The notes beneath the pieces were generated by a model. It was given only the letters and a program-made list of their open reading frames with translations. It was not told where the DNA came from and searched no databases. The position numbers and the translations under genes were made by a program. A stretch of 64,000 nucleotides of DNA from Terriglobia bacterium (lineage in GTDB: Bacteria; Acidobacteriota; Vicinamibacteria; Vicinamibacterales; CAVVIG01), in assembly GCA_020073005.1 (NCBI GenBank), contig JAIQFX010000027.1, positions 120 to 64,119 on the forward strand. The letters are read 5' to 3'. Shown piece after piece: positions 4,015-61,508 of this stretch; within the stretch, counting starts at the first letter, position 1, and each line of letters opens with the position of its first letter.

Positions 4015-4015
4015 G

Positions 4016-4795: not shown

Positions 4796-5853
4796 ACGCG
4801 TGGGGCCGCCGGCTGGCCCGCGATGTCTCGCAGTTCGTCCATGCTCAGCCAGTGGTCGTTCGTGTCGCTCGCGTACGTGAAGTTCTCCGCCACCGGCCGG
4901 CCGCCGTTCGAGCGATAGTCGGCCAGCGTCCACTCGTGAAACGCGGGCGTGATCACGTAGTGCGTGTCGAACTCGAACGTGTAGCGCCACTCGTCGGCGG
5001 GAATCATCACTTCATGGAGCTTCTCGCCTGGGCGGATGCCGACGATGTCCAGCCGGCACTCGGGCGCGATCGCGCGCGCGAGGTCGATGGTCTTCATGCT
5101 CGGGATCTTCGGCACGAAGATCTCGCCGCCGCGCATCCAGTCGAGCGCCGCGAGGACCAGCGTCGCGCCCTGATCGAGCGTGATCCAGAACCGCGTCATG
5201 TCGGGATGCGTGATCGGCAGCACGCCCGACGCCCGCTTGGCCTGAAAGAACGGGATCACGCTCCCGCGGCTGCCGACGACGTTGCCGTAGCGCACGCAGG
5301 CGAAGCGCGTGCCGTGGCCACCGCCGTAGGAATTCGCGGCGACGAAGAGTTTGTCGGCGCAGAGCTTGGTCGCGCCGTAGAGATTGAGCGGATTCGCGGC
5401 CTTGTCCGTGCTGAGCGCGACGACGGTCTTCACGCCGGCATCGAGCGCGACCTCGATGATGTTCTGCGCGCCGATGACGTTGGTCTTGATGACCTCGAAC
5501 GGGTTGTATTCCGCCGCCGGCACCTGCTTGAGCGCGGCCGCGTGAACGACGATGTCCACGCCCTGAAACGCGCGGTGCAGCCGGTCGCGATCGCGCACGT
5601 CGCCGAGGAAGAAGCGCAGGCGCGGGTCGTCATTGAAGTGCTGCGCCATCTCGTTCTGCTTCATCTCGTCGCGGCTCAGGATGGCCAGCCGCTTCGGATT
5701 GGCGTGAGCGAGCGCGATTTCGCTGAACCGGCGGCCGAACGAGCCGGTGCCGCCGGTGACGAGCACCGACTTTCCTTCGAAGCAATTCGTGGCGATGCGG
5801 CGGGAGTCGAGCGACCCGCAGTACGTACGACGAACGGGGTTGGATTCAGTCAA
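4792..5853 (-). CDS. pseB: UDP-N-acetylglucosamine 4,6-dehydratase (inverting)
   Basis: 'VLVTGGTGSFG', 'LSTDKAANPLNLYGATK', 'RYGNVVGSRGSVIPFF' and 'MTRFWITL' are characteristic of PseB/FlaA1. Confidence 0.85.
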   Translation of the reverse strand: MTESNPVRRTYCGSLDSRRIATNCFEGKSVLVTGGTGSFGRRFSEIALAHANPKRLAILSRDEMKQNEMAQHFNDDPRLRFFLGDVRDRDRLHRAFQGVDIVVHAAALKQVPAAEYNPFEVIKTNVIGAQNIIEVALDAGVKTVVALSTDKAANPLNLYGATKLCADKLFVAANSYGGGHGTRFACVRYGNVVGSRGSVIPFFQAKRASGVLPITHPDMTRFWITLDQGATLVLAALDWMRGGEIFVPKIPSMKTIDLARAIAPECRLDIVGIRPGEKLHEVMIPADEWRYTFEFDTHYVITPAFHEWTLADYRSNGGRPVAENFTYASDTNDHWLSMDELRDIAGQPAAPRV

Positions 5854-5899
5854 GATCTTGTAGCATCGAGGGTTAGCGCGCCGGAGTGACTAGAAAATT

Positions 5900-9496: not shown

Positions 9497-9607
9497 AAAT
9501 TGCGGAACGCGGAATGCGGAGCGCGGAGGTCTGGCGACGGAACAGCGCGAGCAATCGAGACGTTCGACGAGTCTCAATCCGCATTCCGCAATCCTCAATC
9601 CGCAATG
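9497..9607. repeat. inverted GCGGAAT/GCGGAGY heptamer arrays with about a 42-nt spacer
   Basis: Left arm is aaattgcggaacgcggaatgcggagcgcggagg. Right arm is tctcaatccgcattccgcaatcctcaatccgcaatg. It starts 3 nt after the synthase stop. Confidence 0.8.
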
Positions 9608-9624: not shown

Positions 9625-10962
9625 ATGAGCGTGAAGGTCAAGTCATCGACCGCGAAAGGCCAGGAGCTCTACCGCCGCGCGAAGAAGCTGATCCCGGGCG
9701 GGACGCAGCTGCTGTCGAAGCGGCCGGAAATGTTCCTGCCCGATCAGTGGCCCTCGTACTACTCGAAGGCGCGCGGCGTCGAGGTCACCGACGTCGACGG
9801 CAACACGTACGTCGACATGTCGATGATGGCGATCGGCGCGTGCGTGCTCGGCTACGCCGATCCGGACGTCGACGCGGCGGCGAAGGCGGCAATCGACGCC
9901 GGGTCCGCCACGACCCTCAACGCGCCCGAGGAAGTCGAGCTCGCCGAGCTGTTGTGCGAGCTGCATCCGTGGGCGCAGATGGTCCGCTACGCGCGCTCGG
10001 GCGGCGAGGCGATGATGATGGCCGTCCGCATCGCGCGCGCACACACGCGCAAGGACAAGATCGCGTTCTCCGGCTACCACGGCTGGTGCGATTGGTACCT
10101 GGCGGCCAACCTCTCGGATGAACGCGCGCTCGACGGCCAGCTGATGCCCGGCCTCGATCCCGCCGGCGTGCCGCGCGGCCTGAAGGGCACGGCGCTGCCG
10201 TTCCACTACAACCGGCTCGATCAGCTGAAGGCGATCGTCGACGCCACGCGCGGCGAGCTCGGCGTCATTGTCATGGAGCCGCGGCGCGGCGACGCGCCGG
10301 CGCCGGGCTTCCTCGAAGCGGTGCGCGCGATCGCGACCGACATCGGTGCCGTGCTGGTCTTCGACGAAGTGACGACCGGCTTCCGCATGACCGACGGCGG
10401 CATCCACAAGCTCCTCGGCGTCAACCCGGACATCGCCGTCTTCGCGAAGGCGATGGCCAACGGCTATCCGATGGCCGCCGTCATCGGCACGTCGACCGTG
10501 ATGGAAGCCGCGCAATCCACGTTCATCAGCAGCACCAACTGGACCGAGCGCGTTGGCACGGTCGCGGCGATCGCGACGATCCGCAAGATCCGCCGCGAGC
10601 GCGTGACGGATCACCTGATCCGCATCGGCGAGCTGACGTTCGCCGGCTGGAAGGCCGCCGCCGCGAAGGCCGGCCTCGCGCTGCACACCGAAGGCCTGCC
10701 GAGCCTGACGCACTTCGGCTTCGAGCATCCGGACGAGCCCGCGCTGACGACGCTCTTCACGCAGGACATGCTGGAGCGCGGCTATCTCGCGTACAGCCAG
10801 TTCAAGCCGTCGTTCGCGCATCAGCCGTCGCACGTCGACGCGTACATGAAGGCCGTCGCATCGTCGTTCGCGATGATCGCGGACGCGATCAAGGCGGGCG
10901 ACTATGGATCGCGATTGAAAGGGCCGTCCGCAAGGCGCGGGTTTTATCGATTGACGTCGTAA
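9625..10962 (+). CDS. class III (glutamate-1-semialdehyde aminomutase-like) PLP aminotransferase
   Basis: 'SGGEAMMMAVRIARAHT', 'VFDEVTTGFR' and 'FAKAMANGYP'. ATG 9625 was chosen because upstream ORF codons are translated repeat array. Confidence 0.8.
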   Translation: MSVKVKSSTAKGQELYRRAKKLIPGGTQLLSKRPEMFLPDQWPSYYSKARGVEVTDVDGNTYVDMSMMAIGACVLGYADPDVDAAAKAAIDAGSATTLNAPEEVELAELLCELHPWAQMVRYARSGGEAMMMAVRIARAHTRKDKIAFSGYHGWCDWYLAANLSDERALDGQLMPGLDPAGVPRGLKGTALPFHYNRLDQLKAIVDATRGELGVIVMEPRRGDAPAPGFLEAVRAIATDIGAVLVFDEVTTGFRMTDGGIHKLLGVNPDIAVFAKAMANGYPMAAVIGTSTVMEAAQSTFISSTNWTERVGTVAAIATIRKIRRERVTDHLIRIGELTFAGWKAAAAKAGLALHTEGLPSLTHFGFEHPDEPALTTLFTQDMLERGYLAYSQFKPSFAHQPSHVDAYMKAVASSFAMIADAIKAGDYGSRLKGPSARRGFYRLTS

Positions 10963-11040
10963 TGAAGAATTAAGAATGAAGAATTACGAATTATGAATTC
11001 CGAACCATTCTTAATTCCCAATTCCTAATTCTTAATTTCA
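10961..11040. repeat. inverted pair of TAATTCY heptamer arrays
   Basis: aatgaagaattaagaatgaagaattacgaattatgaattc / attcttaattcccaattcctaattcttaatttcac. It includes the TAA stop 10960-10962. Confidence 0.8.
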
Positions 11041-13174: not shown

Positions 13175-13256
13175 CACTGCGGAAAAAGGCCGACGCAATC
13201 ACAAACGTTGATTCAATGCAGCGTCGTTTGTGTTGCGCCGGCCTTTTTTCGCAGTG
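13175..13256. terminator. bidirectional intrinsic terminator-like long hairpin between convergent genes
   Basis: cactgcggaaaaaggccgacgcaatcacaaacg pairs with cgtttgtgttgcgccggccttttttcgcagtg (2 mismatches and 1 bulge). The A-tract/T-tract geometry gives a U-run on both strands. Confidence 0.6.
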
Positions 13257-13372: not shown

Positions 13373-15244
13373 TCAACGAGTCTCGGCGACCAGCGCGGCG
13401 ACGCGGTCGGTCGCGTGGCCGTCCAGCTCGGACACGTACGCGCGCAGCTCGGCGCTGCGCGCAAGCGCCCCGCGATCCAGCCCGGCCGCGCCGGCGCGCC
13501 GCGCGGTGAGCTGTTGCCCGAGTTCCTCGATCGAGTACGCGATCGCGATCCCCGGCACGCGATCGAGCGGCAGCAGCTTCCGGCGGAAGACGGCATCGAA
13601 GACGATCGCCGGTGTGCCGAGCGCGATCGACTCGAGCACGGTCGTCGAGTACGCGGCGACGAGCACGTGCGACTTCTCGAGGATGTCGTACAGAATCGGC
13701 TCGCGGATCGTCGTCAACGTCAGCGGATCCCACCCCAGCGCCCGCGCGGCCTCCGCGTAGTACTCCGCTTCCTCGCCCGGATGCATCTTGTGAATGACGC
13801 GGACGTCGGTCTGCGTCCGGGCCCACGCGAGGACCGCGTCGATCATCAGCAGGTTCTCGTACTCGGACGCGCCCATCGAGTAGTCCGTCATGAAGCCGGA
13901 GCAGATCGTAACGGTGAATGTGGCTGGTGCCTGGTGACTGGTGGCTGGTGACTGACTCCCGACTCCCGACTCCCGACTCCCGACTCGCGCGGCGAGCGCG
14001 TCAAAGCGCGGGTTACCCGTTACAACAAAGCTCGCTGTCTGCGCGCCTTGCGCGCGATACCACGTCTCGGTCCAGTCCCCCCACGTGGCGAGCCGGTCCA
14101 CGTGCGCGACGGAATGCCCGTTCGGCTCGCCCGTGATGCCGTGCTGGATTCCCGTCGACGCCACGCCGAAGCGGCGCGCCGTGTCGATGAGCACGCGGTT
14201 GTACGCCGTCACGTCGCTCGACGTGAGCACTCGCCCGCCGGCGCACGCGTCGGTGAGCGACTGCAGGTGACGCAGCGCCGGGACCCACGCCGCGATGTGC
14301 AGCCACACCGTGCGGCCGACGAGCGGCCAGTACGGCACGCCGGCCACGGTGAACTGGCCGGCGTGCGCGCGATCGCCGCTCAACGAGAGCGCCTGCGCCA
14401 CGGCGTCGGCGAGCGCGCCCAGCCAGCGGATCGGATCGACGAGATCGGTGAACGCTTCCAGTGGGATGAGGTCGCGCGGTTGAAACAGCGCGCGCCCGGG
14501 CTGCGTCGCCCCCGCGATCACGATGGGACGCGCGGCGCCCTGAAGCCGCTCGACGACATCCGCGGTGAAGCGATCGCCGACGACGATCAGCGCGCGAGCG
14601 CCTGGCGACGGCATCGCACCGCGCGCGATCCGGCGCCACAGGCCCGTGAAGAACGTCAACCAGATGAAGCCCGGCTCGAGCACGAGCGCGCGAAATTCCG
14701 TGTTGACCCACTTCGTCGCGCGGCCGGCCCGAAGGCGCGCGAACGCCTGCGCCGCGCGCTGAAGGACGTCACCGCCGACGATCTCGGTCGTCAACCCGCG
14801 ACGGCTCGCCACGAGGCGCGCGGCGTCCACGAGCGGCCCGCCGCCGACGAGCACGAGGCGGCCCGGCGCGGATCGCGTCAGCTCGTCGTCGATCGCGGTG
14901 ACGTTGCGCACGGCGCGGCTGAACGACGGGATGAGCGTGTACTGCAGGTATGGGCCGAAGTTCGTGCCCATGGCTTCGGCGTGCTTGCCCGCGGCGCGCG
15001 TGACGCCGTCGAGCATCGCGCGATCGCGCTCGACGATGAGATCCGGCGTGAGGCCGTCGGTCGTCAGGCGCGCGTCGATTCCTTCGCGGCGCAGCCGCAT
15101 CGCGAGCAGCGCGTCGCCGGTCAGGACGGCGGCCGACGCGCCCCGCAGCCGCGCCGGCGCCAGCGCTTCCCGCAGCGCGCGTTCCGCGTGACGGTCCTCG
15201 ACGATCAGCAGCTGGTCCGTGATACGGCGAGCGTACCACGACAT
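13373..15244 (-). CDS. hypothetical two-domain protein, C-terminal half GT-B/Rossmann-like (candidate glycosyl- or nonulosonate-transferase)
   Basis: 623-aa ORF with normal composition in a sugar locus. The C-terminal 'VLVAAYSTTVLESIALGTPAIVF' resembles the GT-B donor-binding helix. No family was recognised with certainty. Confidence 0.45.
   Translation of the reverse strand: MSWYARRITDQLLIVEDRHAERALREALAPARLRGASAAVLTGDALLAMRLRREGIDARLTTDGLTPDLIVERDRAMLDGVTRAAGKHAEAMGTNFGPYLQYTLIPSFSRAVRNVTAIDDELTRSAPGRLVLVGGGPLVDAARLVASRRGLTTEIVGGDVLQRAAQAFARLRAGRATKWVNTEFRALVLEPGFIWLTFFTGLWRRIARGAMPSPGARALIVVGDRFTADVVERLQGAARPIVIAGATQPGRALFQPRDLIPLEAFTDLVDPIRWLGALADAVAQALSLSGDRAHAGQFTVAGVPYWPLVGRTVWLHIAAWVPALRHLQSLTDACAGGRVLTSSDVTAYNRVLIDTARRFGVASTGIQHGITGEPNGHSVAHVDRLATWGDWTETWYRAQGAQTASFVVTGNPRFDALAARVGSRESGVGSQSPATSHQAPATFTVTICSGFMTDYSMGASEYENLLMIDAVLAWARTQTDVRVIHKMHPGEEAEYYAEAARALGWDPLTLTTIREPILYDILEKSHVLVAAYSTTVLESIALGTPAIVFDAVFRRKLLPLDRVPGIAIAYSIEELGQQLTARRAGAAGLDRGALARSAELRAYVSELDGHATDRVAALVAETR
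13920..13986. repeat. GGTGRCT and GACTCCC heptamer arrays, in-frame inside the 623-aa CDS
   Basis: gtggctggtgcctggtgactggtggctggtgactgactcccgactcccgactcccgactcccgactc. On the minus strand it is translated as 'SRESGVGSQSPATSHQAPAT'. Confidence 0.8.
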
Positions 15245-15261
15245 CGTGTAACCTTTTATCG

Positions 15262-16209
15262 ATGCCCAAACGCAAGGCGTGGCAGGGTCACGCCGGAGAG
15301 GCGCTGGACACCGTCGACCAGTTCACGGTCATCGATTGCGACGCGTGCCGCTTCAAGCACATCGTTCCGATTCCCACGCCGGCCGAGCTCGAGCACACGT
15401 ACGGGCACGAGTACTACTCGACGACCAAGCCGCTCTACATCGAGCGCGACCTCGAAGATCGCGACTGGCTGAATCTCGTGTACTCGGAGCGGTACGACGC
15501 GTTCGAGCGGCTGCTCGGACTGAAGCGGCGCCGGCTGCTCGACGTGGGATCGGGCCCCGGGCTGTTCCTGCGCCACGGCGTCGAGCGCGGCGGGTGGAAG
15601 GTCAAAGGACTCGAGCCGTCGACGCAGGCCGTCGCCCACAGTCACACAATCGGGCTCGACGTCACGCAGGCGTTCCTGAATGAAGAGACCGCGGCCGCGC
15701 TCGGCCGGTTCGACGTCGTGCATCTGAGCGAAGTCCTCGAGCACGTGCCCGATCCGCTGGGCATGGTCAAGATCGCGCACGGCCTGCTCGATCCGGGCGG
15801 GCTGCTCGCCGTCATGGTGCCGAACGACTACAGTCCGATTCAGTCGGCGCTGCGCGACGGGTGCGGCTTCAGTCCATGGTGGGTCGCGCCGCCGCATCAC
15901 GTGAACTACTTCGACGTCCCGTCGATCCAGCGGGTGCTGAAGCCGCGCTTCGACGTCGTGTCCGTCGACACGTCGTTTCCCATCGATCTGTTTCTGCTGA
16001 TGGGCGACAACTACGTCGGCAACGACGCACTCGGGCGCGCGTGCCACGCGAAACGCAAAACGATGGAGCTGCATCTGGCGCGGGCCGGAAAATCAGGACT
16101 GAAGCAGGCGATGTACCGGAGCCTCGCGCAACTGGGCGTGGGCCGCGACGTGTTCGTCATCGCGCGCAGGCGCGGCGGGCGACGTGCACGGCGGAGCGGT
16201 GGGAAATGA
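15262..16209 (+). CDS. class I SAM-dependent methyltransferase with N-terminal C-x2-C zinc-ribbon-like motif
   Basis: 'LLDVGSGPGLF' (motif I), 'VHLSEVLEHVPDP' and 'IDCDACRFKH'. Confidence 0.8.
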   Translation: MPKRKAWQGHAGEALDTVDQFTVIDCDACRFKHIVPIPTPAELEHTYGHEYYSTTKPLYIERDLEDRDWLNLVYSERYDAFERLLGLKRRRLLDVGSGPGLFLRHGVERGGWKVKGLEPSTQAVAHSHTIGLDVTQAFLNEETAAALGRFDVVHLSEVLEHVPDPLGMVKIAHGLLDPGGLLAVMVPNDYSPIQSALRDGCGFSPWWVAPPHHVNYFDVPSIQRVLKPRFDVVSVDTSFPIDLFLLMGDNYVGNDALGRACHAKRKTMELHLARAGKSGLKQAMYRSLAQLGVGRDVFVIARRRGGRRARRSGGK

Positions 16210-21826: not shown

Positions 21827-23806
21827 TCAGGGTCCCGTGACCGGATTCGTGACCTGGACGCCGAGAATCCGCACGTCGGCCTTCGGCTCGCCGGGCATGG
21901 CCGCCGGCGACCACGTCGGCGACGTGATGAGATCGATCCGCTGGTAGCCATCGTCTTCGGGCAGGAGCGGCAGGCGCAGCGACACCGGGACCCAGTCGTC
22001 GCGATGGAGAAGCACGCGATCGAGCGTGCGGCCGCCGATCGCGATCGTCACTTCCGTCGGCCCCGTGTTCGTGCCCAGGTGAATCGCGCGCAGCGTCAGG
22101 TGCAGCGCGTGCGCGTTCAGCGGCACGAAGAAGGTCCCGCGCCTCGCGGTCCAGCGGAACTGCACCCCGCTGTCCGCTTCCCACGGGTAGAAGCCGAACG
22201 TCTGCCTCGTCAGATCGAGATTGGCGATCTCGTGCCGCGCCCGCAGCGGCACCGACACGACGAGGGCGGCGGCGATCGCCGCGACCGCGATCGCCGCCGG
22301 TCTCGCGATCCACGCGGCGACGCCCGCTGACGCGCGGCCGGCCGCATGCGGCCGCGCCGCGAGCGGCGGCTGCGCGTCGCCGTCGGCGCGCGCCAGCGCG
22401 ACGCCCAGCAGGATCCAGAACGGGTACGCGACTTCCGCGACGAGCAGCGGATGGCTCGTCATCCACGTCGCGACGAACGTGGCGACGCCCGCGACGGCGC
22501 CGAGCAGCAGCACGTCGCGCGGATCCGCGCGGACGCCGCGGGCGAGCCGGATCGCCGCCGCGCCGAGCAGCCAGACGAACGCCGCGACGCCAATCAGGCC
22601 GAGCTCGCCGCCGATCTGCAGGAAGTTGTTGTGCGCGTTCTCGTGGAAGTAGAACCAGTAGATCGACTGCGGCATGAACTGGCCGGAGCGCTCGTAGTAG
22701 CGGCCGACGCCGACGCCGAAGACCGGCGCGCTCCGGATCATCCGCAGGCCCGTGATCATGAAGTCGCGGCGCATCGAGATCATGTTGGCCGCGGTGCGCG
22801 CGGCCGTCGGCCGCGGATCGATTCCCAGCGCGAGAACCGCGAGCGCGACGGCGACGGCGATCGCGACCGCGGCGGTCGCCCACGCCGGCCACCTGGCCGG
22901 ACGCAGCGGACTGATCGCGAACGCGACGATCACGCACGCGCCAATCGCGGAGACGAGCGCCACGCGCGATCCCGTCAGCCAGACGCCCGCCAGCAGCAGC
23001 GCGGTGATCACGCCCCAGGCCACGCGGGGCCACGACGGCCAGCGCGGCATGCGGCTCCAGCGCGTGTTCACGGCCAGCGTGAGCGCGATCAGCCCCGCCA
23101 TCGCGAAATACGATCCGGCCGCGTTGACGTCGGTGACGTGCACGCTTGTGCGGCTGGCGAGCAGTTGATGCAGGGACGCGGAGTGCGCGACGACGGCTCG
23201 AATCGTCAGGAGCGCCGCGCCGGCGGCGGCGAGCGTGGTCGCCGCGAGCAGGTGCACCGGCCGCAGCACGCCGTCGCGCGCGTGCCGGGCGACGAGCCAC
23301 GCGAGCGCCACGCCCTCGAGCAGCAGCGCGCCGTCGGCGACGCCGGTGTACGACGCGCCGGGCGGCTCGAGCAGGTAGTCGCGCGTCAGAAACATGAGGA
23401 AGTCGCGCAGGAACGGCCACGGCGCGTGCGTGCCCGTCTGCAGCACGCGGAGCGAGACGGCGATCGACGCGAGGACGATCGCCGTGAACACCGCGCCGGG
23501 CACGACGAGTCCCGGACGCTGACCGCCGAGCGGCGTGCGACGTGGCCGTCCGGCGGCGATGGCCAGCCCGGAGAGCGCGGCGAGGACGAGCGTTTCCGCG
23601 AGCCGCAGCCGCGTCGTGTCGGTCGCGATCAGCAGCCACGACGAGAACGGCGCCGTCACCGTCAGCGCGGCGATCGCCCAGTGCGGCCGGACGATGGCCA
23701 GCGCCCAGAAGGCGGCGAGCAGGATCCGGAGTTCGACGGGAACGGCGGCGGAGGTCAGCGCGGACAGGAGCGGGACGAGGAGCGCCGCTCCGCACAGCGT
23801 CGTCAT
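21827..23806 (-). CDS. O-antigen ligase/Wzy_C-domain membrane protein with C-terminal extracytoplasmic domain
   Basis: 'FHENAHNNFLQIGGELGLIG' (Wzy_C-like loop), at least 10 TM helices and a roughly 200-aa soluble C-terminus. Confidence 0.65.
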   Translation of the reverse strand: MTTLCGAALLVPLLSALTSAAVPVELRILLAAFWALAIVRPHWAIAALTVTAPFSSWLLIATDTTRLRLAETLVLAALSGLAIAAGRPRRTPLGGQRPGLVVPGAVFTAIVLASIAVSLRVLQTGTHAPWPFLRDFLMFLTRDYLLEPPGASYTGVADGALLLEGVALAWLVARHARDGVLRPVHLLAATTLAAAGAALLTIRAVVAHSASLHQLLASRTSVHVTDVNAAGSYFAMAGLIALTLAVNTRWSRMPRWPSWPRVAWGVITALLLAGVWLTGSRVALVSAIGACVIVAFAISPLRPARWPAWATAAVAIAVAVALAVLALGIDPRPTAARTAANMISMRRDFMITGLRMIRSAPVFGVGVGRYYERSGQFMPQSIYWFYFHENAHNNFLQIGGELGLIGVAAFVWLLGAAAIRLARGVRADPRDVLLLGAVAGVATFVATWMTSHPLLVAEVAYPFWILLGVALARADGDAQPPLAARPHAAGRASAGVAAWIARPAAIAVAAIAAALVVSVPLRARHEIANLDLTRQTFGFYPWEADSGVQFRWTARRGTFFVPLNAHALHLTLRAIHLGTNTGPTEVTIAIGGRTLDRVLLHRDDWVPVSLRLPLLPEDDGYQRIDLITSPTWSPAAMPGEPKADVRILGVQVTNPVTGP

Positions 23807-25298: not shown

Positions 25299-25522
25299 TA
25301 CCCGCCGCCAACGAAGTTCACGATCTCGACCGCGTCGCCTTCACGAATCACCGTGCTCGCGAACGCATCGCGCTTGAGGACGACGAGGTTGAGCTCGACG
25401 GCCACGCGCCGCGCGTCGATCTGCAGGCTGGCCAGCAAATCGGTCACGCTCATGTTCGCTGTCGCCCCGGGGGGACCGGCGACGGCAATCTCGGTGCGGT
25501 CACCGTTCAGCGTAATCCACAC
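25298..25522 (-). CDS. thiS: sulfur carrier protein ThiS
   Basis: 74 aa ending in 'VGGG' (C-terminal Gly-Gly), upstream of thiG. GTG start. Confidence 0.8.
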   Translation of the reverse strand: MWITLNGDRTEIAVAGPPGATANMSVTDLLASLQIDARRVAVELNLVVLKRDAFASTVIREGDAVEIVNFVGGG

Positions 25523-25629
25523 GATCCAGAGGACATTCTAGCGCGACGGCGCACATTGACTCGCCTGAGAAATTCGACGTACCTTCATTCGATACTCTTA
25601 CCGCATTCATAGCAGCCGATTCCGTCCAT

Positions 25630-28600
25630 ATGCCGTCGCGTCCGACCGCTGATACCACGCCCGAGACCGCACTGGGCGTGCCGGGTTACACGTTCGCCGA
25701 TCTGCACGATCCGCCGAGGCTGGCGTCGCTCTACGAGCGCTTCTGCGAGGAAGTGGCCGCGGCCGATCCGGTTGTCTGGCGCGAGTGGGACGCGTATCGC
25801 CAGGCGCCGGATGCGCCGCGCGCGCCGCTCGCGGTGTCGAATCTGCTCACGAGCATGGCGCCGCACGTCAGCCGCTTCCTCACGCGCCTGTTTCAGGTGG
25901 AGCCGGACGCGCGCGCGATCGGCGACGCCACCCGCGCGCAGGACGATCTGTTCCGCTTCAAGGTGGACTTCGTGCGCCGCCGCGCGCTGCCGCTCGTCAA
26001 ACTAGACAAAGCAGGCGGCGCGCCCCTCACGGCAACGCCCGAAGACGATGCGATCGTCGACCAGCTGATCGCGCGATCGGCCGGCGTCGACCGCGAGCTC
26101 GCCGTCGCACGAGCAGGATGCGCGCTCCTCGATCAAGAGCGCGCCGAAGCCACCAGCCACCAGCCACCAGCCACCAGTCGCCAGGTCGATGCGCTCAAGC
26201 GCTGGTGCGCGTCGCGTCTGCACGACCGCGCGTACCGCGACTGGGTGATCTTCCGTTTTCCCGAGACGCTCGACTACTGGAAGCTCGTCGAGGTCCGGCG
26301 TCCCGAGCCGCGGCGGCCCGAGTCGATGCTCGGGCCTGATTGGCGGCGCCGCCGCCGCGATGGTTTCCTGCTCACGGACGCGCGCATGAATGCGCGCGAG
26401 ACGATGAGCGAGATCCATTACTGCGTGCTGTGCCACGAGCGCGACAAGGACTCGTGCTCGAAAGGCCTCTTCGAAAAAGATCTCACAGTTGTCGTCAACC
26501 CGCTCGGCATTCCGCTCGACGGCTGTCCCCTCGACGAGAAGATCTCCGAGATGCACACCTTGCGCAAGGCCGGCGACGCCGTCGGCGCGCTCGCGCTCGT
26601 CGTCGTCGACAACCCGATGTGTCCCGGCACCGGCCATCGCATCTGCAACGACTGCATGAAGTCGTGCATCTACCAGAAGCAGGAGCCGGTCAACATTCCG
26701 CAGATCGAAACGGGCGTGCTGACCGACGTCCTGCGGCTGCCGTGGGGCGTGGAGATCTTCGGTCTGCTCACGCGGTGGAATCCGCTCAACGTCCGCCGGC
26801 CGTACGCGCTGCCGTACAACGGCAAGAACGTCCTCGTCGTCGGCCTCGGCCCCGCGGGTTACACGCTCGCGCACTATCTGGTGAACGAAGGCTTCGGCGT
26901 CGTCGGCGTCGATGGACTCAAGATCGAGCCGCTGCCGCGCGACATCGTCGGCACCGACACCGTCGCGCCGCGGCCGATTCGCGACTGGGACGAAATCTAT
27001 CGCCGCCTCGACGAGCGCGTGCTCGAGGGATTCGGCGGCGTGTCCGAGTACGGGATCACCGTGCGATGGGACAAGAACTTCCTGACGCTGCTGCACCTGA
27101 CGCTCGCGCGGCGGCGCGGCCTGCGGATGTACGGCGGCGTCCGCTTCGGCGGCACGCTGCCCATCGAGGACGCGTGGACGTACGGCTTCGATCACGTGGC
27201 GATTGCCGCGGGCGCCGGACGGCCGACCGTCATCGACATGAAGAACAACCTGATCCGCGGGATCAGGAAGGCGAGCGATTTCCTGATGGCGCTGCAGCTG
27301 ACGGGCGCCTTCAAGCGCGACGCGCTTCCCAATCTGCAGGCGCGCCTGCCGGCGGTCGTCATCGGCGGCGGCCTCACGGCGATCGACACGGCGACCGAGC
27401 TGATGGCGTACTACCCGCTGCAGGCGGAGAAGACGCTGCGGCGGTACGAGACGCTCGTCGCCGAGATTGGCGAAGCGCGCGTGCGCGGCGCGTACGACGC
27501 CGAAGAGCTCGAGATTCTCGACGAGTCGCTCGCACACGGACGCGAGGTGCGCGCCGAGCGCGCGCGCGCCGCGACCGCCGGCGAGTCACCCGACTTCGTG
27601 CCGCTCGTGCGATCGTGGGGCGGCGTCACGATCGCGTACCGCAAGCGCATGGTCGATTCGCCGGCGTACCGGCTGAATCACGAGGAAGTGATCAAGGCGC
27701 TCGAAGAAGGCATCGTGTTCGCGGAGCTGCTGAATCCCGTTGAAGCAGTTTCGGACGCGCGGGGCGCGCTGAAAGAAGTGATCTTCAGGCGGGAAGGGCG
27801 GGAGAGGCAGGAAGGGCAGGAAGGGAACGTGACGCTCCCTGCGCGGACGCTGCTCGTGGCGGCGGGGACGACGCCCAACATCACGTGCGAGAAGGAAGCG
27901 CCGGGCCACTTCCAGCTCGACGCGAAGAAGAAATTCTTCCAGCCGCACGGCGTCACCGCGAACGGCGACGGCCGTTTCCATCTGACGCCCGATCCGAACG
28001 GCTTCTTCACGTCGTACGACGCCGACGGCCGGTTCGTCACGTACTACGGCGACAACCATCCGCGCTACGCCGGAAACGTCGTCAAGGCGATGGCCTCGGC
28101 CAAGCACGGCTTCCCGCAGGTGACGCGGCTGTTCGCGCGCGACCTCGCGTCGCTCGACGCGGGGAAGCAGGCCGATCGCGATCGCGCCTGGACGGCGCTC
28201 GTGCAGCGGCTCGACACCGATCTGCTCGCGCGCGTCGAGGACGTCGTGCGGCTGACGCCGACGATCGTCGAAGTCATCGTGAAGGCGCCGGCGGCCGCGC
28301 GCCATTTCCATCCGGGTCAGTTCTACCGGCTGCAGAACTTCGAATCGGTCGCGCGCCGCGTCGGCCCGACGCCGCTGCTGATGGAAGGCATCGCGCTCAC
28401 CGGCGCGTGGGTGGACAAGGAGCGCGGGCTGCTGTCGCTCATCGCGCTCGAGCTCGGCGTGTCGAGCCGGCTCGTCGCGTACCTGCAGAAGGGCGAGCCG
28501 GTCGTCGTCATGGGACCGACGGGCGCGCCGACGGACATCCCCGAGTGCCAGAACGTGCTGCTGCTCGGCGGCGGCCTCGGCAACGCCGTGCTCTTCTCGA

Positions 28601-29196
28601 TCGCGAAAGCGATGCGCGACCGCGGCAACAAGGTGATTTACTTCGCCGGCTACAAAAAGGGCGAAGACCTGTTCAAGCGCGAGGACATCGAGGCGGCGAC
28701 CGATCAGGTCATCTGGAGCACGGACACCGGCGCCGCGATCCCGCCCGGGCGTCCGCAGGACGCGCATTTCCGCGGCAACATCGTCCAGGCGATGATCGCG
28801 TATCAGAAGGGTGAGCTCGGCGATCGGCTCGTGCCGCTCGATTCCGTCGATCGGATCATCGCAATCGGATCAGATCGGATGATGGCGGCGGTCAAGGCGG
28901 CGCGCTACGGCGCGCTGGCGCCGTTCCTGAAGAAAGGTCACGTCGGCATCGCGAGCATCAACTCGCCGATGCAGTGCATGATGAAGGAAGTCTGCGCGCA
29001 GTGCCTGCAGAAGCACGTCGACCCCGCGACGGGGAAGGAAACGATCATCTTCTCGTGCTTCAACCAGGATCAGGAGATGGACCGCGTCGACTTCCCGAAC
29101 CTCGCGGCGCGGCTGCGGCAGAACACGGTGCAGGAGAAACTGTCGAATCTGTGGCTCGATCACTTGCTGCGTGGAGCGGCGCTGCCGCACATTTAG
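25630..29196 (+). CDS. large multidomain Fe-S flavoprotein oxidoreductase (GltD/DPD-like FAD-NAD(P) module fused to PyrK-like ferredoxin-reductase module)
   Basis: Cys clusters 'CVLCHERDKDSC' and 'CPGTGHRICNDCMKSC', dinucleotide fold 'VLVVGLGPAGYTLA', PyrK-like 'FHPGQFYRL' and 'LLGGGLGNA', and C-terminal 'CMMKEVCAQC'. 1188 aa. Confidence 0.7.
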   Translation: MPSRPTADTTPETALGVPGYTFADLHDPPRLASLYERFCEEVAAADPVVWREWDAYRQAPDAPRAPLAVSNLLTSMAPHVSRFLTRLFQVEPDARAIGDATRAQDDLFRFKVDFVRRRALPLVKLDKAGGAPLTATPEDDAIVDQLIARSAGVDRELAVARAGCALLDQERAEATSHQPPATSRQVDALKRWCASRLHDRAYRDWVIFRFPETLDYWKLVEVRRPEPRRPESMLGPDWRRRRRDGFLLTDARMNARETMSEIHYCVLCHERDKDSCSKGLFEKDLTVVVNPLGIPLDGCPLDEKISEMHTLRKAGDAVGALALVVVDNPMCPGTGHRICNDCMKSCIYQKQEPVNIPQIETGVLTDVLRLPWGVEIFGLLTRWNPLNVRRPYALPYNGKNVLVVGLGPAGYTLAHYLVNEGFGVVGVDGLKIEPLPRDIVGTDTVAPRPIRDWDEIYRRLDERVLEGFGGVSEYGITVRWDKNFLTLLHLTLARRRGLRMYGGVRFGGTLPIEDAWTYGFDHVAIAAGAGRPTVIDMKNNLIRGIRKASDFLMALQLTGAFKRDALPNLQARLPAVVIGGGLTAIDTATELMAYYPLQAEKTLRRYETLVAEIGEARVRGAYDAEELEILDESLAHGREVRAERARAATAGESPDFVPLVRSWGGVTIAYRKRMVDSPAYRLNHEEVIKALEEGIVFAELLNPVEAVSDARGALKEVIFRREGRERQEGQEGNVTLPARTLLVAAGTTPNITCEKEAPGHFQLDAKKKFFQPHGVTANGDGRFHLTPDPNGFFTSYDADGRFVTYYGDNHPRYAGNVVKAMASAKHGFPQVTRLFARDLASLDAGKQADRDRAWTALVQRLDTDLLARVEDVVRLTPTIVEVIVKAPAAARHFHPGQFYRLQNFESVARRVGPTPLLMEGIALTGAWVDKERGLLSLIALELGVSSRLVAYLQKGEPVVVMGPTGAPTDIPECQNVLLLGGGLGNAVLFSIAKAMRDRGNKVIYFAGYKKGEDLFKREDIEAATDQVIWSTDTGAAIPPGRPQDAHFRGNIVQAMIAYQKGELGDRLVPLDSVDRIIAIGSDRMMAAVKAARYGALAPFLKKGHVGIASINSPMQCMMKEVCAQCLQKHVDPATGKETIIFSCFNQDQEMDRVDFPNLAARLRQNTVQEKLSNLWLDHLLRGAALPHI
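26150..26184. repeat. CCAGCCA heptamer array in-frame in the oxidoreductase CDS
   Basis: ccaccagccaccagccaccagccaccagtcgccag, translated 'ATSHQPPATSRQ'. Confidence 0.8.
27788..27825. repeat. GGAAGGGC-type array in-frame in the oxidoreductase CDS
   Basis: ggcgggaagggcgggagaggcaggaagggcaggaaggg, translated 'REGRERQEGQEG'. Confidence 0.75.
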
Positions 29197-29492: not shown

Positions 29493-31655
<2,163 letters not shown>

Positions 31656-33883: not shown

Positions 33884-34174
33884 TTAGTACCGGTAATCGT
33901 CGGGACTGCGCTTCTTCGGCGTGCGCCGGAGCTTGTAGAACGTGCAGTCGGGACACCAGGCTTCAGGGTTGAAGTTGATACCCGCGATCGGCAGGACGTC
34001 GCGGTGGCCGCAGCATTCCGGACCGTCTTCGGGCGGCCGCCGCCAGCGGCACGACTTGAAGCGCGCCACCGCCGGCGACATCTCGACATTCGGCGTCGCG
34101 GCCGGGGCGCCAGGCGCCGCGGGCGCGCCGGGCGGCGGATTCGACGTGCCGAACGGATCCGACATCGAACTCAT
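33884..34174 (-). CDS. hypothetical Cys-rich small protein
   Basis: 96 aa with 'CRWRRPPEDGPECCGH...WCPDCTFY'. ATGA overlap with the helicase stop. Confidence 0.5.
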   Translation of the reverse strand: MSSMSDPFGTSNPPPGAPAAPGAPAATPNVEMSPAVARFKSCRWRRPPEDGPECCGHRDVLPIAGINFNPEAWCPDCTFYKLRRTPKKRSPDDYRY

Positions 34175-35511
34175 TCTAATGGAACGCCGACGGACTTGGC
34201 CAGAAACGCCAGCGCGCGCCGCTCTTCCGGCGCGACCAGCGTGATCGCCTGTCCGACCTGATCGGCGCGGCCCGTGCGGCCCACGCGATGCACGTACGCA
34301 TCGGGCGAGTCCGGCACTTCGTAATTGATGACGGTGTGGATCGCGTCGATGTCCAGCCCGCGCGCGGCGATGTCGGTCGCGACGAGCACCTTGTACTTCC
34401 CGCTCTTGAATCCCTCGACGGCGATGCGCCGCTGATCCTGGCTGCGATCGGCGTGGAGCGCCGTGCACTTGACGCCCGCCGCGGCGAGCCGGCGCGCCAG
34501 GCGATCGGCGCCGATCTTCGTCCGCGAAAAGATCAGCACGGGCCCTTCCGGCCGGCGCAGATGATCGATCAGCCATTCGACCTTGCGCGACGCGGCGACG
34601 GCTTCGACGCGGTGCGTGATGCTCTTGGGCGGCGCGCTGCGCTGGCCGACCTGGATGTATTTCGCGGCGCGCGTGATTTCCAGCGCGTCGTGCACGACCT
34701 CGTCGGGCATCGTCGCCGAGAAGAGGAGCGTCTGGCGCACCGGCGGCAGCGCCGTGATGATCCGGCGGACGTCGGGCCAGAAGCCCATGTCCATCATGCG
34801 GTCCGCTTCGTCGAGGACGAGCAGCTCGACGGCGCTCAGGTCCGCGTTCTGCTGCCGCATGTGATCCATCAGCCGGCCCGGCGTGGCGACGATGATGTCG
34901 ACGCCGGCTTTCAGCGCGCGCTCCTGCATGCCCATCTCGACGCCGCCGTAGACCGCGGCGCTCGTGACGCTCGTGTGGTACGCGAGGCCGTGGATTTCGT
35001 CTTCGATCTGGACCGCGAGCTCGCGCGTCGGCGCGAGCACGAGCACGCGCGATTTGTTAGGGGGACGGGAGTCGGGCGGCAGGGGACGGGTCTCGCTGGC
35101 GGTCTCGGCGCGAGACCCGTCCCCTGTACTCCGACTCCCGTCCCCCGCGATCAGCCGCTGCAGCGTCGGCACGACGAACGCCGCGGTCTTTCCCGTGCCC
35201 GTCTCGGCGCACGCGATGAGATCCTGGCCGGCGAGCGCGAGCGGGATCACCGCCGTCTGAATCGGCCGCGTGTCGGTCCATCCGAGGTCGCGCGTGCCTT
35301 CGAGCAGCCGCGGATCCAGGCCGAGCGAGGCGAAAGGAACGGGCGTGGTGTCGCACGCGATCGGCTCGAGCGATAGCGGGGGACGGGTCTCCGAGCGACG
35401 TACGTGCGGAGACCCGTCCCCCGACCGTCTGGACCCGCGGCGCGGACCGCCGCGTGATCCGCGGCGGTGTCCGCCGTGCCCTTGTCCTCGACCAGTTGTC
35501 TTGGAGTTCAA
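34171..35511 (-). CDS. DEAD-box ATP-dependent RNA helicase (start uncertain)
   Basis: Q-motif 'TRPIQ', 'AETGTGKTAAF', 'PTRELA', 'LDEADRM', 'SAT' and 'HRVGRTGRA'. The ORF N-terminus overlaps infA out of frame. TTG 35511 is the first in-frame start after infA. Confidence 0.8.
   Translation of the reverse strand: MNSKTTGRGQGHGGHRRGSRGGPRRGSRRSGDGSPHVRRSETRPPLSLEPIACDTTPVPFASLGLDPRLLEGTRDLGWTDTRPIQTAVIPLALAGQDLIACAETGTGKTAAFVVPTLQRLIAGDGSRSTGDGSRAETASETRPLPPDSRPPNKSRVLVLAPTRELAVQIEDEIHGLAYHTSVTSAAVYGGVEMGMQERALKAGVDIIVATPGRLMDHMRQQNADLSAVELLVLDEADRMMDMGFWPDVRRIITALPPVRQTLLFSATMPDEVVHDALEITRAAKYIQVGQRSAPPKSITHRVEAVAASRKVEWLIDHLRRPEGPVLIFSRTKIGADRLARRLAAAGVKCTALHADRSQDQRRIAVEGFKSGKYKVLVATDIAARGLDIDAIHTVINYEVPDSPDAYVHRVGRTGRADQVGQAITLVAPEERRALAFLAKSVGVPLE
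35060..35146. repeat. 87-nt nested perfect hairpin (GGGGACG/GACTCCC type) in-frame between helicase motifs I and Ia
   Basis: gggggacgggagtcgg...aggggacgggtctcg...cgagacccgtcccct...ccgactcccgtccccc. It is 29 codons, translated 'GDGSRSTGDGSRAETASETRPLPPDSRPP'. Confidence 0.85.
35377..35421. repeat. perfect 16-bp hairpin of the same GGGGACGGGTCTC family
   Basis: gggggacgggtctccg-agcgacgtacgtg-cggagacccgtccccc, between infA and the conserved helicase core. Confidence 0.8.
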
Positions 35512-35524
35512 ACTGTTTTTGTGG

Positions 35525-35743
35525 CTAGCGTGCGCGGAACGTGATGATGCCCCTGACCGGATCGTAGGGCGAGACGCCCACCGTGACGCGATCGCCCGGA
35601 ACCACCTTGATGCGGAAGCGGCGCATGCGGCCGCTGAGCTGGGCAAGCACTTCGTGGCCGGCGTCGCACTGCACGCGGTAGAGCCCGCCGCTGTGCACGG
35701 CGACCACGGTGCCCTGCATGTCGATCAGATCATCCTTACTCAA
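35525..35743 (-). CDS. infA: translation initiation factor IF-1
   Basis: 'MQGTVVAVHSGGLYRVQCDAGHEVLAQLSGRMRRFRIKVVPGDRVTVGVSPYD' (S1-like fold). TTG start preceded by GAAGGAAGG. Confidence 0.9.
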   Translation of the reverse strand: MSKDDLIDMQGTVVAVHSGGLYRVQCDAGHEVLAQLSGRMRRFRIKVVPGDRVTVGVSPYDPVRGIITFRAR

Positions 35744-42694: not shown

Positions 42695-43840
42695 ATGGAT
42701 TCCTGCATCGCGCTTCTCCGCGATCTCGTCGCGATCAACTCGGTCAATCCCACGCTCGTGCCGGGCGCGCCGGGCGAGCGCGCGGTCGCCGAGTTCATCG
42801 CGGCCGACATGCGCACGCACGGTCTCGACGTTTCGATCGAGCCCGTCGTGCCGGATCGACCGAACGTCGTCGGCGTCCTCGAGGGGCGCGCGCCGGGGCG
42901 GACGCTGATGTTCTGCGGCCACACCGACACCGTCGGCGTCGCGGGCATGACCGATCCGTTCGCGCCGGTCGAACGTGACGGCCGTCTGTACGCGCGCGGC
43001 GCGCAGGACATGAAGGGCGGCGTCGCCGCGATGATGAGCGCGGCCGCGGAGATCGCGGCGCGCGGCGGCCTCGCGAAAGGCCGATTGATCGTCGCGGCCG
43101 TTGTCGATGAAGAGCACTCGAGCATCGGCGCGGACGCGCTCGTCACGAAGTGGCGCGCCGACGCGGCAATCGTGACGGAGCCGACCGACCTCGCGATCGC
43201 GGTCGGACACAAGGGTTTCGCGTGGGTGCGCGTCGATGTCGAAGGCAAGGCCGCGCACGGCAGTCGTCCGGCGGAAGGGCAGGACGCGATTCTGCGGCTC
43301 GGCCGCGTCCTCGCGCGGCTCGAGGCGCTGGACGCGACGCTGCAGGCGCAGCCGCCGCACGCGCTGATGGGCACCGGATCGCTGCACGCGTCGCTCATCG
43401 AAGGCGGACACGAGCTGAGCAGCTATCCCGATCATGCGACGCTGCAGATGGAGCGGCGGACGCTGCCCGGCGAGCCCGAATCGAAAGCGCTGGCGGAAGT
43501 GCAGCAGATTCTCGACGCGCTCGCGCGCGAGGATCCGACGTTCCGCGGCACGGCGACGGCGAGGTTCAGCCGGCCGGCGTACGAAGTCCCCGCGAATCAT
43601 GAGCTGCCGCGCGCGCTGACAGCCGCGCTGGCGCGCGCCGGAGGCCAGCCGCGCATCGCGGGCGCGAGTTTCTGGACCGACGCCGCAGTCCTCGGCCACG
43701 CCGGGATTCCCTCGATCCTCTTTGGACCGGGTGGGGCTGGACTTCACTCGACGGTCGAATACGTCAACGTGCGGGATGTGTTGACGTGTCGAGACGCGTT
43801 GATCGAGTTGGCAAAGAACTACTGCGGGTCAATTGGGTAG
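42695..43840 (+). CDS. M20 family metallopeptidase (ArgE/DapE-type deacylase)
   Basis: 'FCGHTDTV', 'ARGAQDMKGG' and 'VVDEEHSS'. Confidence 0.8.
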   Translation: MDSCIALLRDLVAINSVNPTLVPGAPGERAVAEFIAADMRTHGLDVSIEPVVPDRPNVVGVLEGRAPGRTLMFCGHTDTVGVAGMTDPFAPVERDGRLYARGAQDMKGGVAAMMSAAAEIAARGGLAKGRLIVAAVVDEEHSSIGADALVTKWRADAAIVTEPTDLAIAVGHKGFAWVRVDVEGKAAHGSRPAEGQDAILRLGRVLARLEALDATLQAQPPHALMGTGSLHASLIEGGHELSSYPDHATLQMERRTLPGEPESKALAEVQQILDALAREDPTFRGTATARFSRPAYEVPANHELPRALTAALARAGGQPRIAGASFWTDAAVLGHAGIPSILFGPGGAGLHSTVEYVNVRDVLTCRDALIELAKNYCGSIG

Positions 43841-44229
43841 TTGAGTAATTGGGTAGGTGGGTAATTGCCGTGACGTTGCCAGTATCGGATTGAACGCACT
43901 CGGATTCAGCGCGTTCGTTCGGGGACACCGTCGTTGTCGTGGAGAGACACCAGTGATGTGGCTTCCGAGTCGATCACAATAGGCGCTGATATGGATTGCC
44001 CTCGTCGGCGGGTGCGCGCTTGCTGCCGTCTCAATCAGCTACAGCGATCAAACGGCAACTGCTGAAGGCGGCAACATCAGTGTTGTGACCGAGGAGGCCG
44101 ACGAGTGTCAGTACTGGCTGAACCTCGTTGCGGATGCAAAACTGGCGACGAGTCCTGAGCGGAGCGGCGATGATTGCGGCGGGAAGCGATTACCCAATTA
44201 CCCAACCTTACTCAATTCCCCGATTCACC
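43831..44229. mobile_element. candidate palindromic element: inverted GGGTAATT arrays bracketing a decayed four-helix-bundle gene
   Basis: Arms are 43831-43867 (aattgggtagttgagtaattgggtaggtgggtaattg) and 44188-44229 (gattacccaattacccaaccttactcaattccccgattcacc). The interior looks lower in GC and has only broken ORFs. Confidence 0.45.
43983..44186 (+). pseudogene. degenerate four-helix-bundle (TIGR02436-like) gene fragment
   Basis: The frame reads '...AAVSISYSDQTATAEGGN...EEADECQYWLNLVADAKL', reminiscent of the 'AAxSIxxNIAEG' and 'KEAxETxYWLxLL' motifs. There is no plausible full-length ORF. Confidence 0.35.
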
Positions 44230-60938: not shown

Positions 60939-61403
60939 ATGCAGATTATCGCGAAATGCCCGGCGTGCGACGCCGGGTTGCCCGTCTCCGCCCGTGAAGC
61001 GCCGTCCGCGATCAAGTGCGGCGGCTGCGGCCGCGACATCCCGCTGACGTTCTCCGAGGATCTGAAGGCCGACCGCGCGATCGATCGCTGTCCCGTCTGC
61101 GAGGGAACCGACTTCTATATCCGCAAGGATTTCGATCCGAAGATCGGCCTCACCGTCGTCGTCATCGGCGCGATCATCAGCGGCATCTTCTACTGGTTCG
61201 GCAAGGACCTCGTCGCCTACAGCATTCTCGCCGCCGCCGCGCTGATCGATCTCGTCGTCTACGGCCGGCTGAAGGATCTCACGGTCTGCTATCGCTGCCA
61301 CAGCGAATTCCGCGGCGCGTACGAACGCAAGGCGCCCGCATTCGATCTGCATACCGCGGATGTTCTTGAACTGGAGTATGAGAGGCGGATAGGACGTCGG
61401 TGA
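60939..61403 (+). CDS. hypothetical zinc-ribbon membrane protein
   Basis: 'CPACDAG...CGGCG', 'CPVCEG' and 'CYRCHSEF', with two TM helices. Confidence 0.5.
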   Translation: MQIIAKCPACDAGLPVSAREAPSAIKCGGCGRDIPLTFSEDLKADRAIDRCPVCEGTDFYIRKDFDPKIGLTVVVIGAIISGIFYWFGKDLVAYSILAAAALIDLVVYGRLKDLTVCYRCHSEFRGAYERKAPAFDLHTADVLELEYERRIGRR

Positions 61404-61508
61404 ATTGGGTGAGTGAGTAGTTGGGTAATTGAGTAATCGCGGCGGCATTTCGCCGCGGGCGACGCAGCCATTACCCAATTACCCAACTTCCCACTTACCC
61501 AATTCACC
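61400..61508. repeat. cargo-less inverted GGGTAATT arrays: about 39-nt imperfect hairpin spanning the gap between convergent stop codons
   Basis: Left arm is gtgaattgggtgagtgagtagttgggtaattgagtaat. The right arm's reverse complement is ggtgaattgggtaagtgggaagttgggtaattgggtaat. The arms touch TGA 61401-61403 and TGA (minus strand) 61509-61511. Confidence 0.85.

Follow-up and report, generated by a model that had tools for sequence, protein, structure and literature searches.

A nested G-rich hairpin in the gene of a Vicinamibacterales DEAD-box RNA helicase and the palindromic repeat family to which it belongs

Palindromic repeats that lie in frame within housekeeping genes are known from Rickettsia (the Rickettsia palindromic elements, RPEs; Ogata et al. 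2000), as summarised in PMC10969869. Here we describe a nested hairpin of 87 nt, H1, which lies in frame in the gene of a DEAD-box RNA helicase on a stretch of 64 kb (the window; 68% GC) of one genome of the Vicinamibacterales (Acidobacteriota). The family to which H1 belongs is recognisable by the word GGGGACGGG and resembles the RPEs in that its units are palindromic and non-autonomous and are found in frame in many unrelated genes, at places that are compatible with the fold. The RPEs (PMC10969869) are about 100-150 bp long, are limited to Rickettsia and have a conserved peptide per family, whereas the GGGGACGGG units are about 41-47 nt long (87 nt when nested), rich in G, translated in three frames and present in the Acidobacteriota and beyond.

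Intragenic copies of the repetitive extragenic palindromes (REPs) encode 20-30 aa and are often located in genes for helicases, repair proteins and pseudouridine synthases (PMC3733652), and in two species of Xanthomonas one and the same site of recB is occupied by different REPs (Di Nocera et al. 2013, PMC3733652). Inverted pairs of REPs, the REPINs, are mobilised by REP-associated tyrosine transposases (RAYTs; Bertels & Rainey 2011, PMC3116915). G-rich heptamers of the form GGGNATC occur in Xanthomonas and Nostoc, with 70-75 convergent inverted pairs capable of forming stem-loops in Xanthomonas (Rehm et al. 2015, PMC4692102). These repeats form long tandem arrays, are under-represented within coding sequence and have been discussed as formers of G-quadruplexes (PMC4692102), whereas the GGGGACGGG family has one or two words per arm and many intragenic copies. 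Both have G-tract heptamers (GGGGACG and GGGAGTC here, GGGGACT and GGGAATC there), and the window contains arrays with a period of seven. Elhai and co-workers are said to have described, in 2008, small dispersed repeats (SDRs) of 21-27 nt in heterocystous cyanobacteria, reportedly nested, in hairpins and beside heptamer arrays; lineage and sequence differ from those of the present family.

The GGGGACGGG family behaves like known intragenic palindromic repeats but fits no named class fully. Our preferred explanation, to which we assign a probability of roughly 0.7, is that H1 is an intragenic copy of a non-autonomous palindromic repeat, similar to a REPIN or to a MITE (miniature transposable element with inverted repeats), which was spread or renewed in trans and kept at permissive loops.

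The hairpins of the window and the helicase gene

The features on which the argument rests are the following.

34171-35511, minus strand: host gene of H1, RhlE-like DEAD-box RNA helicase of 446 aa (P0001), TTG start at 35511
35060-35146, minus strand: H1, nested hairpin of 87 nt, translated as 29 aa (P0001 residues 123-151), helicase motifs I/Ia
35060-35075, unstranded: outer left arm of H1, GGGGGACGGGAGTCGG, AGTC-type word, partner of 35131-35146
35131-35146, unstranded: outer right arm of H1, CCGACTCCCGTCCCCC, partner of 35060-35075
35080-35126, unstranded: inner unit of H1, hairpin of 47 nt with perfect 17-nt arms CAGGGGACGGGTCTCGC and a 13-nt loop, TCTC-type word
35377-35423, minus strand: H2, in the same gene as H1, perfect 17-nt arms CGGGGGACGGGTCTCCG, 13-nt loop, minimum free energy (MFE) -45.5 kcal/mol
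30204-30307, minus strand: H3, in frame in a prolyl oligopeptidase (S9) gene, perfect 18-nt outer arms TACGGGGACGGGAGTCGC, MFE -68 kcal/mol
30813-30873, minus strand: H4, of another family (GTCCGGCTnnAGCCGGAC modules), in the S9 peptidase gene that bears H3

An earlier note had drawn attention to H1, and the sequence quoted there is exact; the nested hairpin itself is confirmed. The two arms (35060-35096 and 35110-35146) measure 37 nt each and are 89% complementary around an apical loop of 13 nt, with perfect pairing over the outer 16 and the inner 17 nt and a non-complementary linker of 6 nt on each side. When folded as the minus-strand mRNA, as the note had proposed, the segment is indeed very stable: its MFE is -82.1 kcal/mol, whereas 200 shuffles average -44.7 (z -11.2) and not one of them is as stable. 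The TCTC-type inner unit has the same geometry as H2 and occupies the loop of the AGTC-type outer unit; H1 is one repeat unit of about 43 nt nested in the loop of another.

The 87 nt are read as exactly the 29 in-frame codons that had been claimed: the peptide GDGSRSTGDGSRAETASETRPLPPDSRPP, in the open reading frame (ORF) 34171-35646 on the minus strand, is flanked by AETGTGKTAAF (motif I) and PTRELA (motif Ia). Neither H1 nor H2 contains a stop codon in any of the six frames. A search for features of programmed bypass or frameshifting revealed neither an in-frame stop nor a change of frame at H1, the insert being in frame. No terminator-like T-run follows H1 or H2 (the sense strand 3' of H1 reads UAACAAAU), and a search of the whole window against Rfam 15 at the gathering score gave no match.

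The word GGGGACGGG is present in nine copies in the window, where 0.8 would be expected, and the inverted pair of the 13-nt word GGGGACGGG(A/T)(G/C)TC, with an expectation of 0.00 in shuffles of the window, is found three times, namely in H1, H2 and H3. The peptide encoded by H2, GDGSPHVRRSETRPP, is part of the conserved Arg/Gly-rich N-terminal tail of the helicase. H3, about 5 kb from H1, is read as RGRES...TPVP, and H1 and H2 are read as GDGS..., which are different frames of one DNA word. A lone GGGGACGGG at 32245 was considered as a further member and rejected; it belongs to native glucokinase coding sequence and was taken as a chance occurrence.

P0001 shows the motifs of a DEAD-box helicase (PIQ, AETGTGKT, PTRELA, DEAD, SAT and HRVGRTGR in the translation; PF00270 and PF00271 recorded), among solved structures Hera and DDX3X match it best (E about 1e-75), and its nearest named relatives are found in the Vicinamibacterales (Acidobacteriota). 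The Arg/Gly-rich N-terminal extension is kept as protein (LNSNTT...PALEPxxCDTTPVPF) in many orthologues, and is therefore coding. Thermus Hera (4kbf) aligns with P0001 in two pieces and has no counterpart to residues 122-145; where the insert lies, DDX3X naturally possesses a long loop. In an AlphaFold model based on 47 orthologues the insert stretch is situated between a helix that follows motif I (108-122) and a strand that precedes motif Ia (156-159), and residues 125-152 have a predicted local distance difference test (pLDDT) score below 50 and lack secondary structure. The H1-encoded insert is thus predicted by the model to be disordered, as is the N-terminal tail that bears H2.

Directly upstream of the helicase gene (around 35526-35743, minus strand) a gene was found for a 72-aa protein resembling IF-1 (PF01176, eIF-1a / S1-fold), which ends about 12 nt before the helicase start. 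The same pairing is present in three other loci (L081, L082 and L206), and looks like an operon of an IF-1 paralogue and a DEAD-box helicase.

The helicase loop in orthologues and close relatives

The loop from GKT to PTREL measures 25-69 aa (median 41) in 120 orthologous proteins of 80-91% identity, and 25-71 aa in 78 loci derived from genomes. Eight loci define a baseline of 25-26 aa, so that the 51-aa loop of P0001 represents a net gain of 25-26 aa over the shortest loops; the clean indel of 29 aa that the earlier note anticipated was not found in the alignment, and P0001 without its 29 aa would retain a loop of 22 aa, below that of every orthologue. The objection that the note itself had named, an equivalent loop in orthologues that lack the palindrome, applies in part: such orthologues have loops of equivalent or greater length, 51 aa in L081 and L082 and up to 64 aa in others.

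A significant palindrome is present in the loop of only four of the 78 loci, and the palindromes differ in sequence. The window loop has a perfect stem of 17 (z -9.7), the loop of L058 contains AAAGGGGACGGGAGTC (z -4.8), and those of L001 and L029 contain AAGGCCTGCGCTAC (z -4.9 and -4.0), a GTAG-bearing palindrome of the REP type, as in published REPs. A third palindrome family, GGGGGTCGGGAAC..., was found in the loops of L205 and L206 (z -6.5 and -8.1). At least three palindrome families occupy the helicase loop in different lineages; together with the predicted disorder of the insert, this recurrence bears out the suggestion that palindromes are tolerated in a domain of the essential type. 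Since several long, non-palindromic loops contain relics of REP-type peptides (e.g. VAQAFS), much of the variation in loop length looks like the result of decayed palindromes.

In view of the position of H1 in the mRNA of an RNA helicase, the earlier note had also raised the possibility of autoregulation. The hairpin would then stall ribosomes or recruit an RNase, and the helicase would relieve this effect, which amounts to negative feedback. Such a role would be in line with the presence of two very stable hairpins in one mRNA (H1, -82 kcal/mol; H2, -45 kcal/mol) and with the recurrence of palindromes in the helicase loop in several lineages, but only four of the 78 loops are palindromic, and other lineages have palindromes from different families, most of them decayed. 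As the hairpin is not conserved in the closest relatives and the same repeat occurs in unrelated genes, in three frames, autoregulation is unsupported, and we consider it extremely unlikely. There is no sign that H1 has been selected as a regulator; it may have an incidental effect on translation speed or mRNA decay.

The nearest relatives for which DNA is available, L081 and L082, were fetched via their protein, a choice that the repeat did not bias; both are syntenic with the window and share about 93% nucleotide identity with it in the flanks. Unbiased comparisons of arms with flanks are those among the window, L081 and L082. Both relatives are without H1 and H2. The segments that correspond to H1 and H2 are alike in L081 and L082 (z 9-18), whereas either is barely alignable with the window; the residual homology of the H1-H3 sites amounts to z 1.4-2.5, and homology therefore cannot decide between replacement and an origin in place. 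The loops of L081 and L082 have the same length as that of the window, which for the window and L082 was judged a coincidence, since other close relatives have loops of 31 and 56 aa.

In another relative, P0003, which stems from an independent ENA assembly, the peptides GDRSRDTGDGSRTTQVSETCPPISETCPP and GDGPPHASSRETRP imply both H1 and H2, which argues against an artefact of assembly. The contig is of the metagenome type, the exact protein is known as one member on one contig, and assemblers can be confused by palindromes; yet the reading frame is intact and both flanks are conserved, independent assemblies have related palindromes at the site (the P0003 peptide, L058, L001, L029, L205 and L206), and the same family occurs three times in the window and in at least 120 other contigs. 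An artefact is hardly to be entertained.

At the H3 site of the S9 peptidase gene the core GGGG(A/G)CGGG...CCCGTCCCC is present in all three genomes, with sub-arms and interior that differ; the hairpin is perfect in L082, where its arms measure 22 nt, and degenerate in L081. The arms of H4 are nearly identical in the window and in L082 (10959-11015), whereas the 11-nt loop is fully different (GGCCCCACTGA versus TACGGGGGTGG); in L081 (around 14700) the site has a shortened, non-palindromic form and the hairpin is absent. Hairpin sites can therefore persist with their interiors rewritten, and the comparisons among the three genomes imply that a nucleotide divergence of about 7-10% is enough for hairpins to come and go.

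In the case of H2 (alignment A1, columns 313-385), a stretch of the N-terminal tail has been replaced by one of equal length as compared with L082 and L081. Its apical loop CCGCACGTAC bears a weak resemblance (z 2.5) to CCGCACGCAC of the relatives, with Pro-His kept, as if the arms alone had been overwritten. Length neutrality and loop resemblance would both fit an origin in place, in which, with no mobile element involved, short quasi-palindromes and heptamer arrays in G/P/R-rich coding loops are lengthened and perfected by replication slippage and intramolecular template switching, and the shared word reflects a common mutational bias. The same holds for the spacing of 21 nt between GGGGACGGG-like words in H1 and H3, for the left arm of H4, which uses a sequence (GGTCCGGCTGA) that is present in L081 without a hairpin, for the density of period-7 arrays in the window, including (GACTCCC)x4.7, which corresponds to the GGGAGTC half of the word, and for the lack of both target-site duplications and transposases at the copies examined. 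Mutational bias is difficult to reconcile, however, with 13-16 identical arm nucleotides at three sites of the window and at least 120 metagenome loci of 28-71% GC, or with the recurrence of one 63-nt member, unchanged, in at least 10 unrelated contexts. Moreover, 6 of the 13 arm positions of H2 differ from L082 at a flank divergence of only about 7%, which makes point-wise growth of this hairpin unlikely. An origin in place thus has some support, but as the sole explanation we regard it as quite unlikely.

Family members in other contigs and the known repeat classes

A scan of metagenome contigs for inverted pairs of the exact 13-nt word yielded at least 120 stretches, in contigs of 28-71% GC. 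Because these loci were fetched by an exact match of the arm, arm conservation among them is partly built in, and the apparent excess of arm over flank conservation in pairs of metagenome loci was discounted for this reason. Of about 130 elements, at least 40 are enclosed by ORFs whose frame runs on unchanged through the element, and the third codon positions on both sides have a coding-like GC content. The in-frame hosts encode Ser/Thr kinases, an ATP-dependent DNA ligase, UvrD-like and RecD2-like helicases, a MiaB-like methylthiotransferase, an RluA-type pseudouridine synthase, a glycerol-kinase-like protein, a carboxyltransferase and an OmpR-type regulator. The word is translated in all three frames across these hosts (GDGS, GTGV and GRES), and consequently there is no conserved peptide.

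The commonest form of the family among the matches listed is aaaaaGGGGACGGGAGTCtttt...aaaaGACTCCCGTCCCCttttt (...ttttt), which is mostly intergenic, and many intergenic relatives have A5/T5 flanks. One member of 63 nt has an interior of 37 nt that is 100% identical in at least 10 loci, the flanks of 250 nt being unrelated, and spread by copy-and-paste therefore follows for at least the 63-nt subfamily. A BLAST search with this member against plasmids gave no match. The members of the window type are hairpins of about 41-47 nt, with arms of 15-17 nt that end in ...TCGG and loops of 9-17 nt that are all different. A comparison of L092 with L152 revealed nesting or replacement as in H1 in a kinase, and the helicase loops of L205 and L206 show it too; extra direct copies of the word on one arm, spaced by 21 nt, were observed in L157, L186, L199 and L143.

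Inverted pairs of the same G-rich 13-mer, GGGGACGGGTCTC, are also present in contigs with a GC content of about 29% (L090, L091, L094, L108, L113, L114, L121, L122, L183 and L202), and in the low-GC contigs the word sits in the loop of local GGGATTG/CAATCCC stems. In L121 the repeat lies between convergent genes; the contig encodes SpoIVA, RlmN and a WhiA-like protein, of which SpoIVA indicates an endospore-forming member of the Bacillota. A phage origin of a low-GC carrier contig was considered and rejected, as comparison with phages gave weak gene-level matches only. In viral contigs the real pattern matched twice and a permuted control not at all, numbers that are too small to use. A full-text search of the literature for the 13-mers as strings matched only an unrelated mouse paper, and literature searches on intragenic palindromes of Acidobacteria found no description of the GGGGACGGG family.

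The wide distribution of the word could also be understood if it were a signal in DNA or RNA that is maintained by the host, bound by a protein or similar to an uptake signal (cf. the pairs of DNA uptake sequences, DUS, in Neisseria), and kept by selection or biased gene conversion, with the intragenic copies as tolerated by-products. In agreement with this, the core or the outer arms persist at the orthologous S9 sites while the interior is rewritten, with the same persistence in L126/L136 and L095/L101, including one compensatory change; the commonest form, aaaaaGGGGACGGGAGTCtttt...ttttt, resembles a two-way terminator and is mostly intergenic; and the G-rich word is retained in contigs of 29% GC that carry SpoIVA. 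Nevertheless, it was the search that introduced most of the arm conservation in metagenomes, close relatives simply lack H1 and H2 in the unbiased comparison, and identical whole elements in unrelated contexts fit copying better. To our knowledge, no uptake or binding motif covers both Acidobacteriota and Bacillota. A maintained signal is accordingly very unlikely in our view.

Of the described classes, REPs and REPINs resemble the family in forming inverted pairs that fold into long hairpins and in occurring as singles, dimers and clusters; inverted pairs and clusters were found in H1-H3 and in L157, L186, L199 and L143. The unit is not self-complementary, as a REP would be, since GGGGACGGGWSTC(GG) forms stems only as pairs of words, and a terminal GTAG/CGTC tag is absent, CGTC being found solely inside the stem (CCCGTCCCC). 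A cognate RAYT flanked by the same repeat was found neither in the window nor beside any copy. The TIRYT-associated motif GGGGWSAS is similar to the GGGGACGGG word, without a match at position 7.

With MITEs the family shares short terminal inverted repeats (identical inverted termini of 13-17 nt), the lack of coding capacity and nested insertions. Near-identical copies in unrelated contexts are a property of the 63-nt subfamily, whereas the loops of the window-type units all differ, and target-site duplications are lacking. The units are smaller than typical MITEs, their interiors differ, and no parental insertion sequence was found.

Among the contigs, L133 contains a RAYT-like Y1_Tnp ORF (5642-6346, minus strand) flanked by self-complementary GGAAAATGACCCCTGGGGTCAATTTCC units at 5529-5551, 6424-6450 and 6502-6528. 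The arrangement is similar to that of a TIRtron or REPtron, and the motif GGGGTCA is close to the published GGGGWSAS.

The window contains several other repeats. Long intergenic hairpins were found at gene ends (1154-1247, 4015-4121, 10961-11037, 61399-61508, 9499-9606, and 43831-43867 with 44189-44225), the arms of which are AT-rich arrays phased by 7 or 8 nt (GAATTnn, GGGTAAT/ATTACCCA, GCGGAAc/CAATCCG), the GC content of the genome being 68%; the hairpins seem to form a repeat class of their own. About 20 period-7 arrays are present in the 64 kb, and GGGAGTC is the second half of the hairpin word. Two of them, perfect or near-perfect, lie in long, coding-like ORFs: (GTGACTG)x5 followed by (GACTCCC)x4.7 at 13913-13986, read as GSRESGVGSQSPATSHQAPAT in ORF 13373-15322 (minus strand), and (AGCCACC)x4.3 at 26148-26177 in ORF 25516-29196 (plus strand). 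At 22261-22380 two adjacent, very GC-rich hairpins outside the GGGGACGGG family (MFE -90 kcal/mol over 120 nt) are located in an ORF with a Wzy_C domain (O-antigen ligase-like). Finally, the hairpin CACTGCGGAAAAAGGCCGACGCAA / TTGCGCCGGCCTTTTTTCGCAGTG at 13175-13256, with 24-nt arms that are 92% complementary and internal A- and T-runs, has the look of a terminator.

Proposed origin and implications

In the explanation that we prefer, the unit would be an inverted pair of the 13-16-nt G-rich word GGGGACGGG(A/T)(G/C)TC(GG) around a short, non-conserved loop, and units would be spread or renewed at the DNA level by an activity acting in trans. The leading guess for the mobiliser is a single-strand transposase of the HUH or RAYT type that recognises hairpins. 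Afterwards the palindromes may be remodelled by slippage, template switching and deletion, and intragenic copies would survive only where the protein tolerates them. The permissive place would here be the surface loop, naturally variable in length, that joins the helix following motif I to the strand preceding motif Ia, and the product of H1 a presumably disordered stretch of 29 aa, rich in Gly, Ser, Arg, Asp, Thr and Pro. We infer the transposition enzyme and its mechanism, the neutrality of the insert and translation through the hairpin; the ribosome would have to unwind H1 in the mRNA, at a possible cost in speed or stability.

Several points weigh against this explanation. Target-site duplications were not seen at the ends of H1-H3 or of the metagenome elements, the flanks of the elements being inverted complements (A-run / T-run) and not direct repeats. 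A search of all loci and the window with a regular expression for RAYT motifs revealed no transposase adjoining any copy, and all-against-all clustering of neighbouring ORFs gave no recurrent mobility gene; the sole Y1_Tnp gene, that of L133, has a copy at a distance of 3 kb, and the palindrome at its flanks is a different one, GACCCCTGGGGTC. As the loops of the window-type units all differ, copy-and-paste is shown for a sister subfamily only. In comparison with L081 and L082 the hairpins resemble a replacement of resident sequence, length-neutral in H2, and not a clean insertion, and the 13-nt word itself is not a palindrome, unlike the classical REP unit. Copies in this genome can be counted within 64 kb only, and in the metagenome contigs exact-match fetching accounts for part of the arm conservation.

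One may go further and imagine the G-rich word of 13-16 nt as a very small mobile or recombinogenic module that is shared across phyla (Acidobacteriota and Bacillota of 29% GC), written in pairs of inverted copies that are renewed in place as their interiors turn over. By means of an enzyme that has yet to be recognised, it would then act as a general generator of disordered loop insertions in conserved enzymes such as helicases, ligases, kinases and peptidases. We consider this extension unlikely.

If H1 is indeed a repeat copy, selfish or semi-selfish palindromic DNA, and not selection on the protein, can create and renew variation in the length of a surface loop in the core of a conserved enzyme. 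The helicase loop of the Vicinamibacterales, which ranges from 25 to 71 aa and contains fresh or decayed palindromes of at least three families, would be a case in point. For annotation it serves as a warning that very stable intragenic hairpins in these soil bacteria would be copies of a repeat rather than regulators. Of interest to specialists, if true, would be the activity that mobilises the units, the retention of arms around rewritten interiors and the occurrence of the same word in distant phyla.

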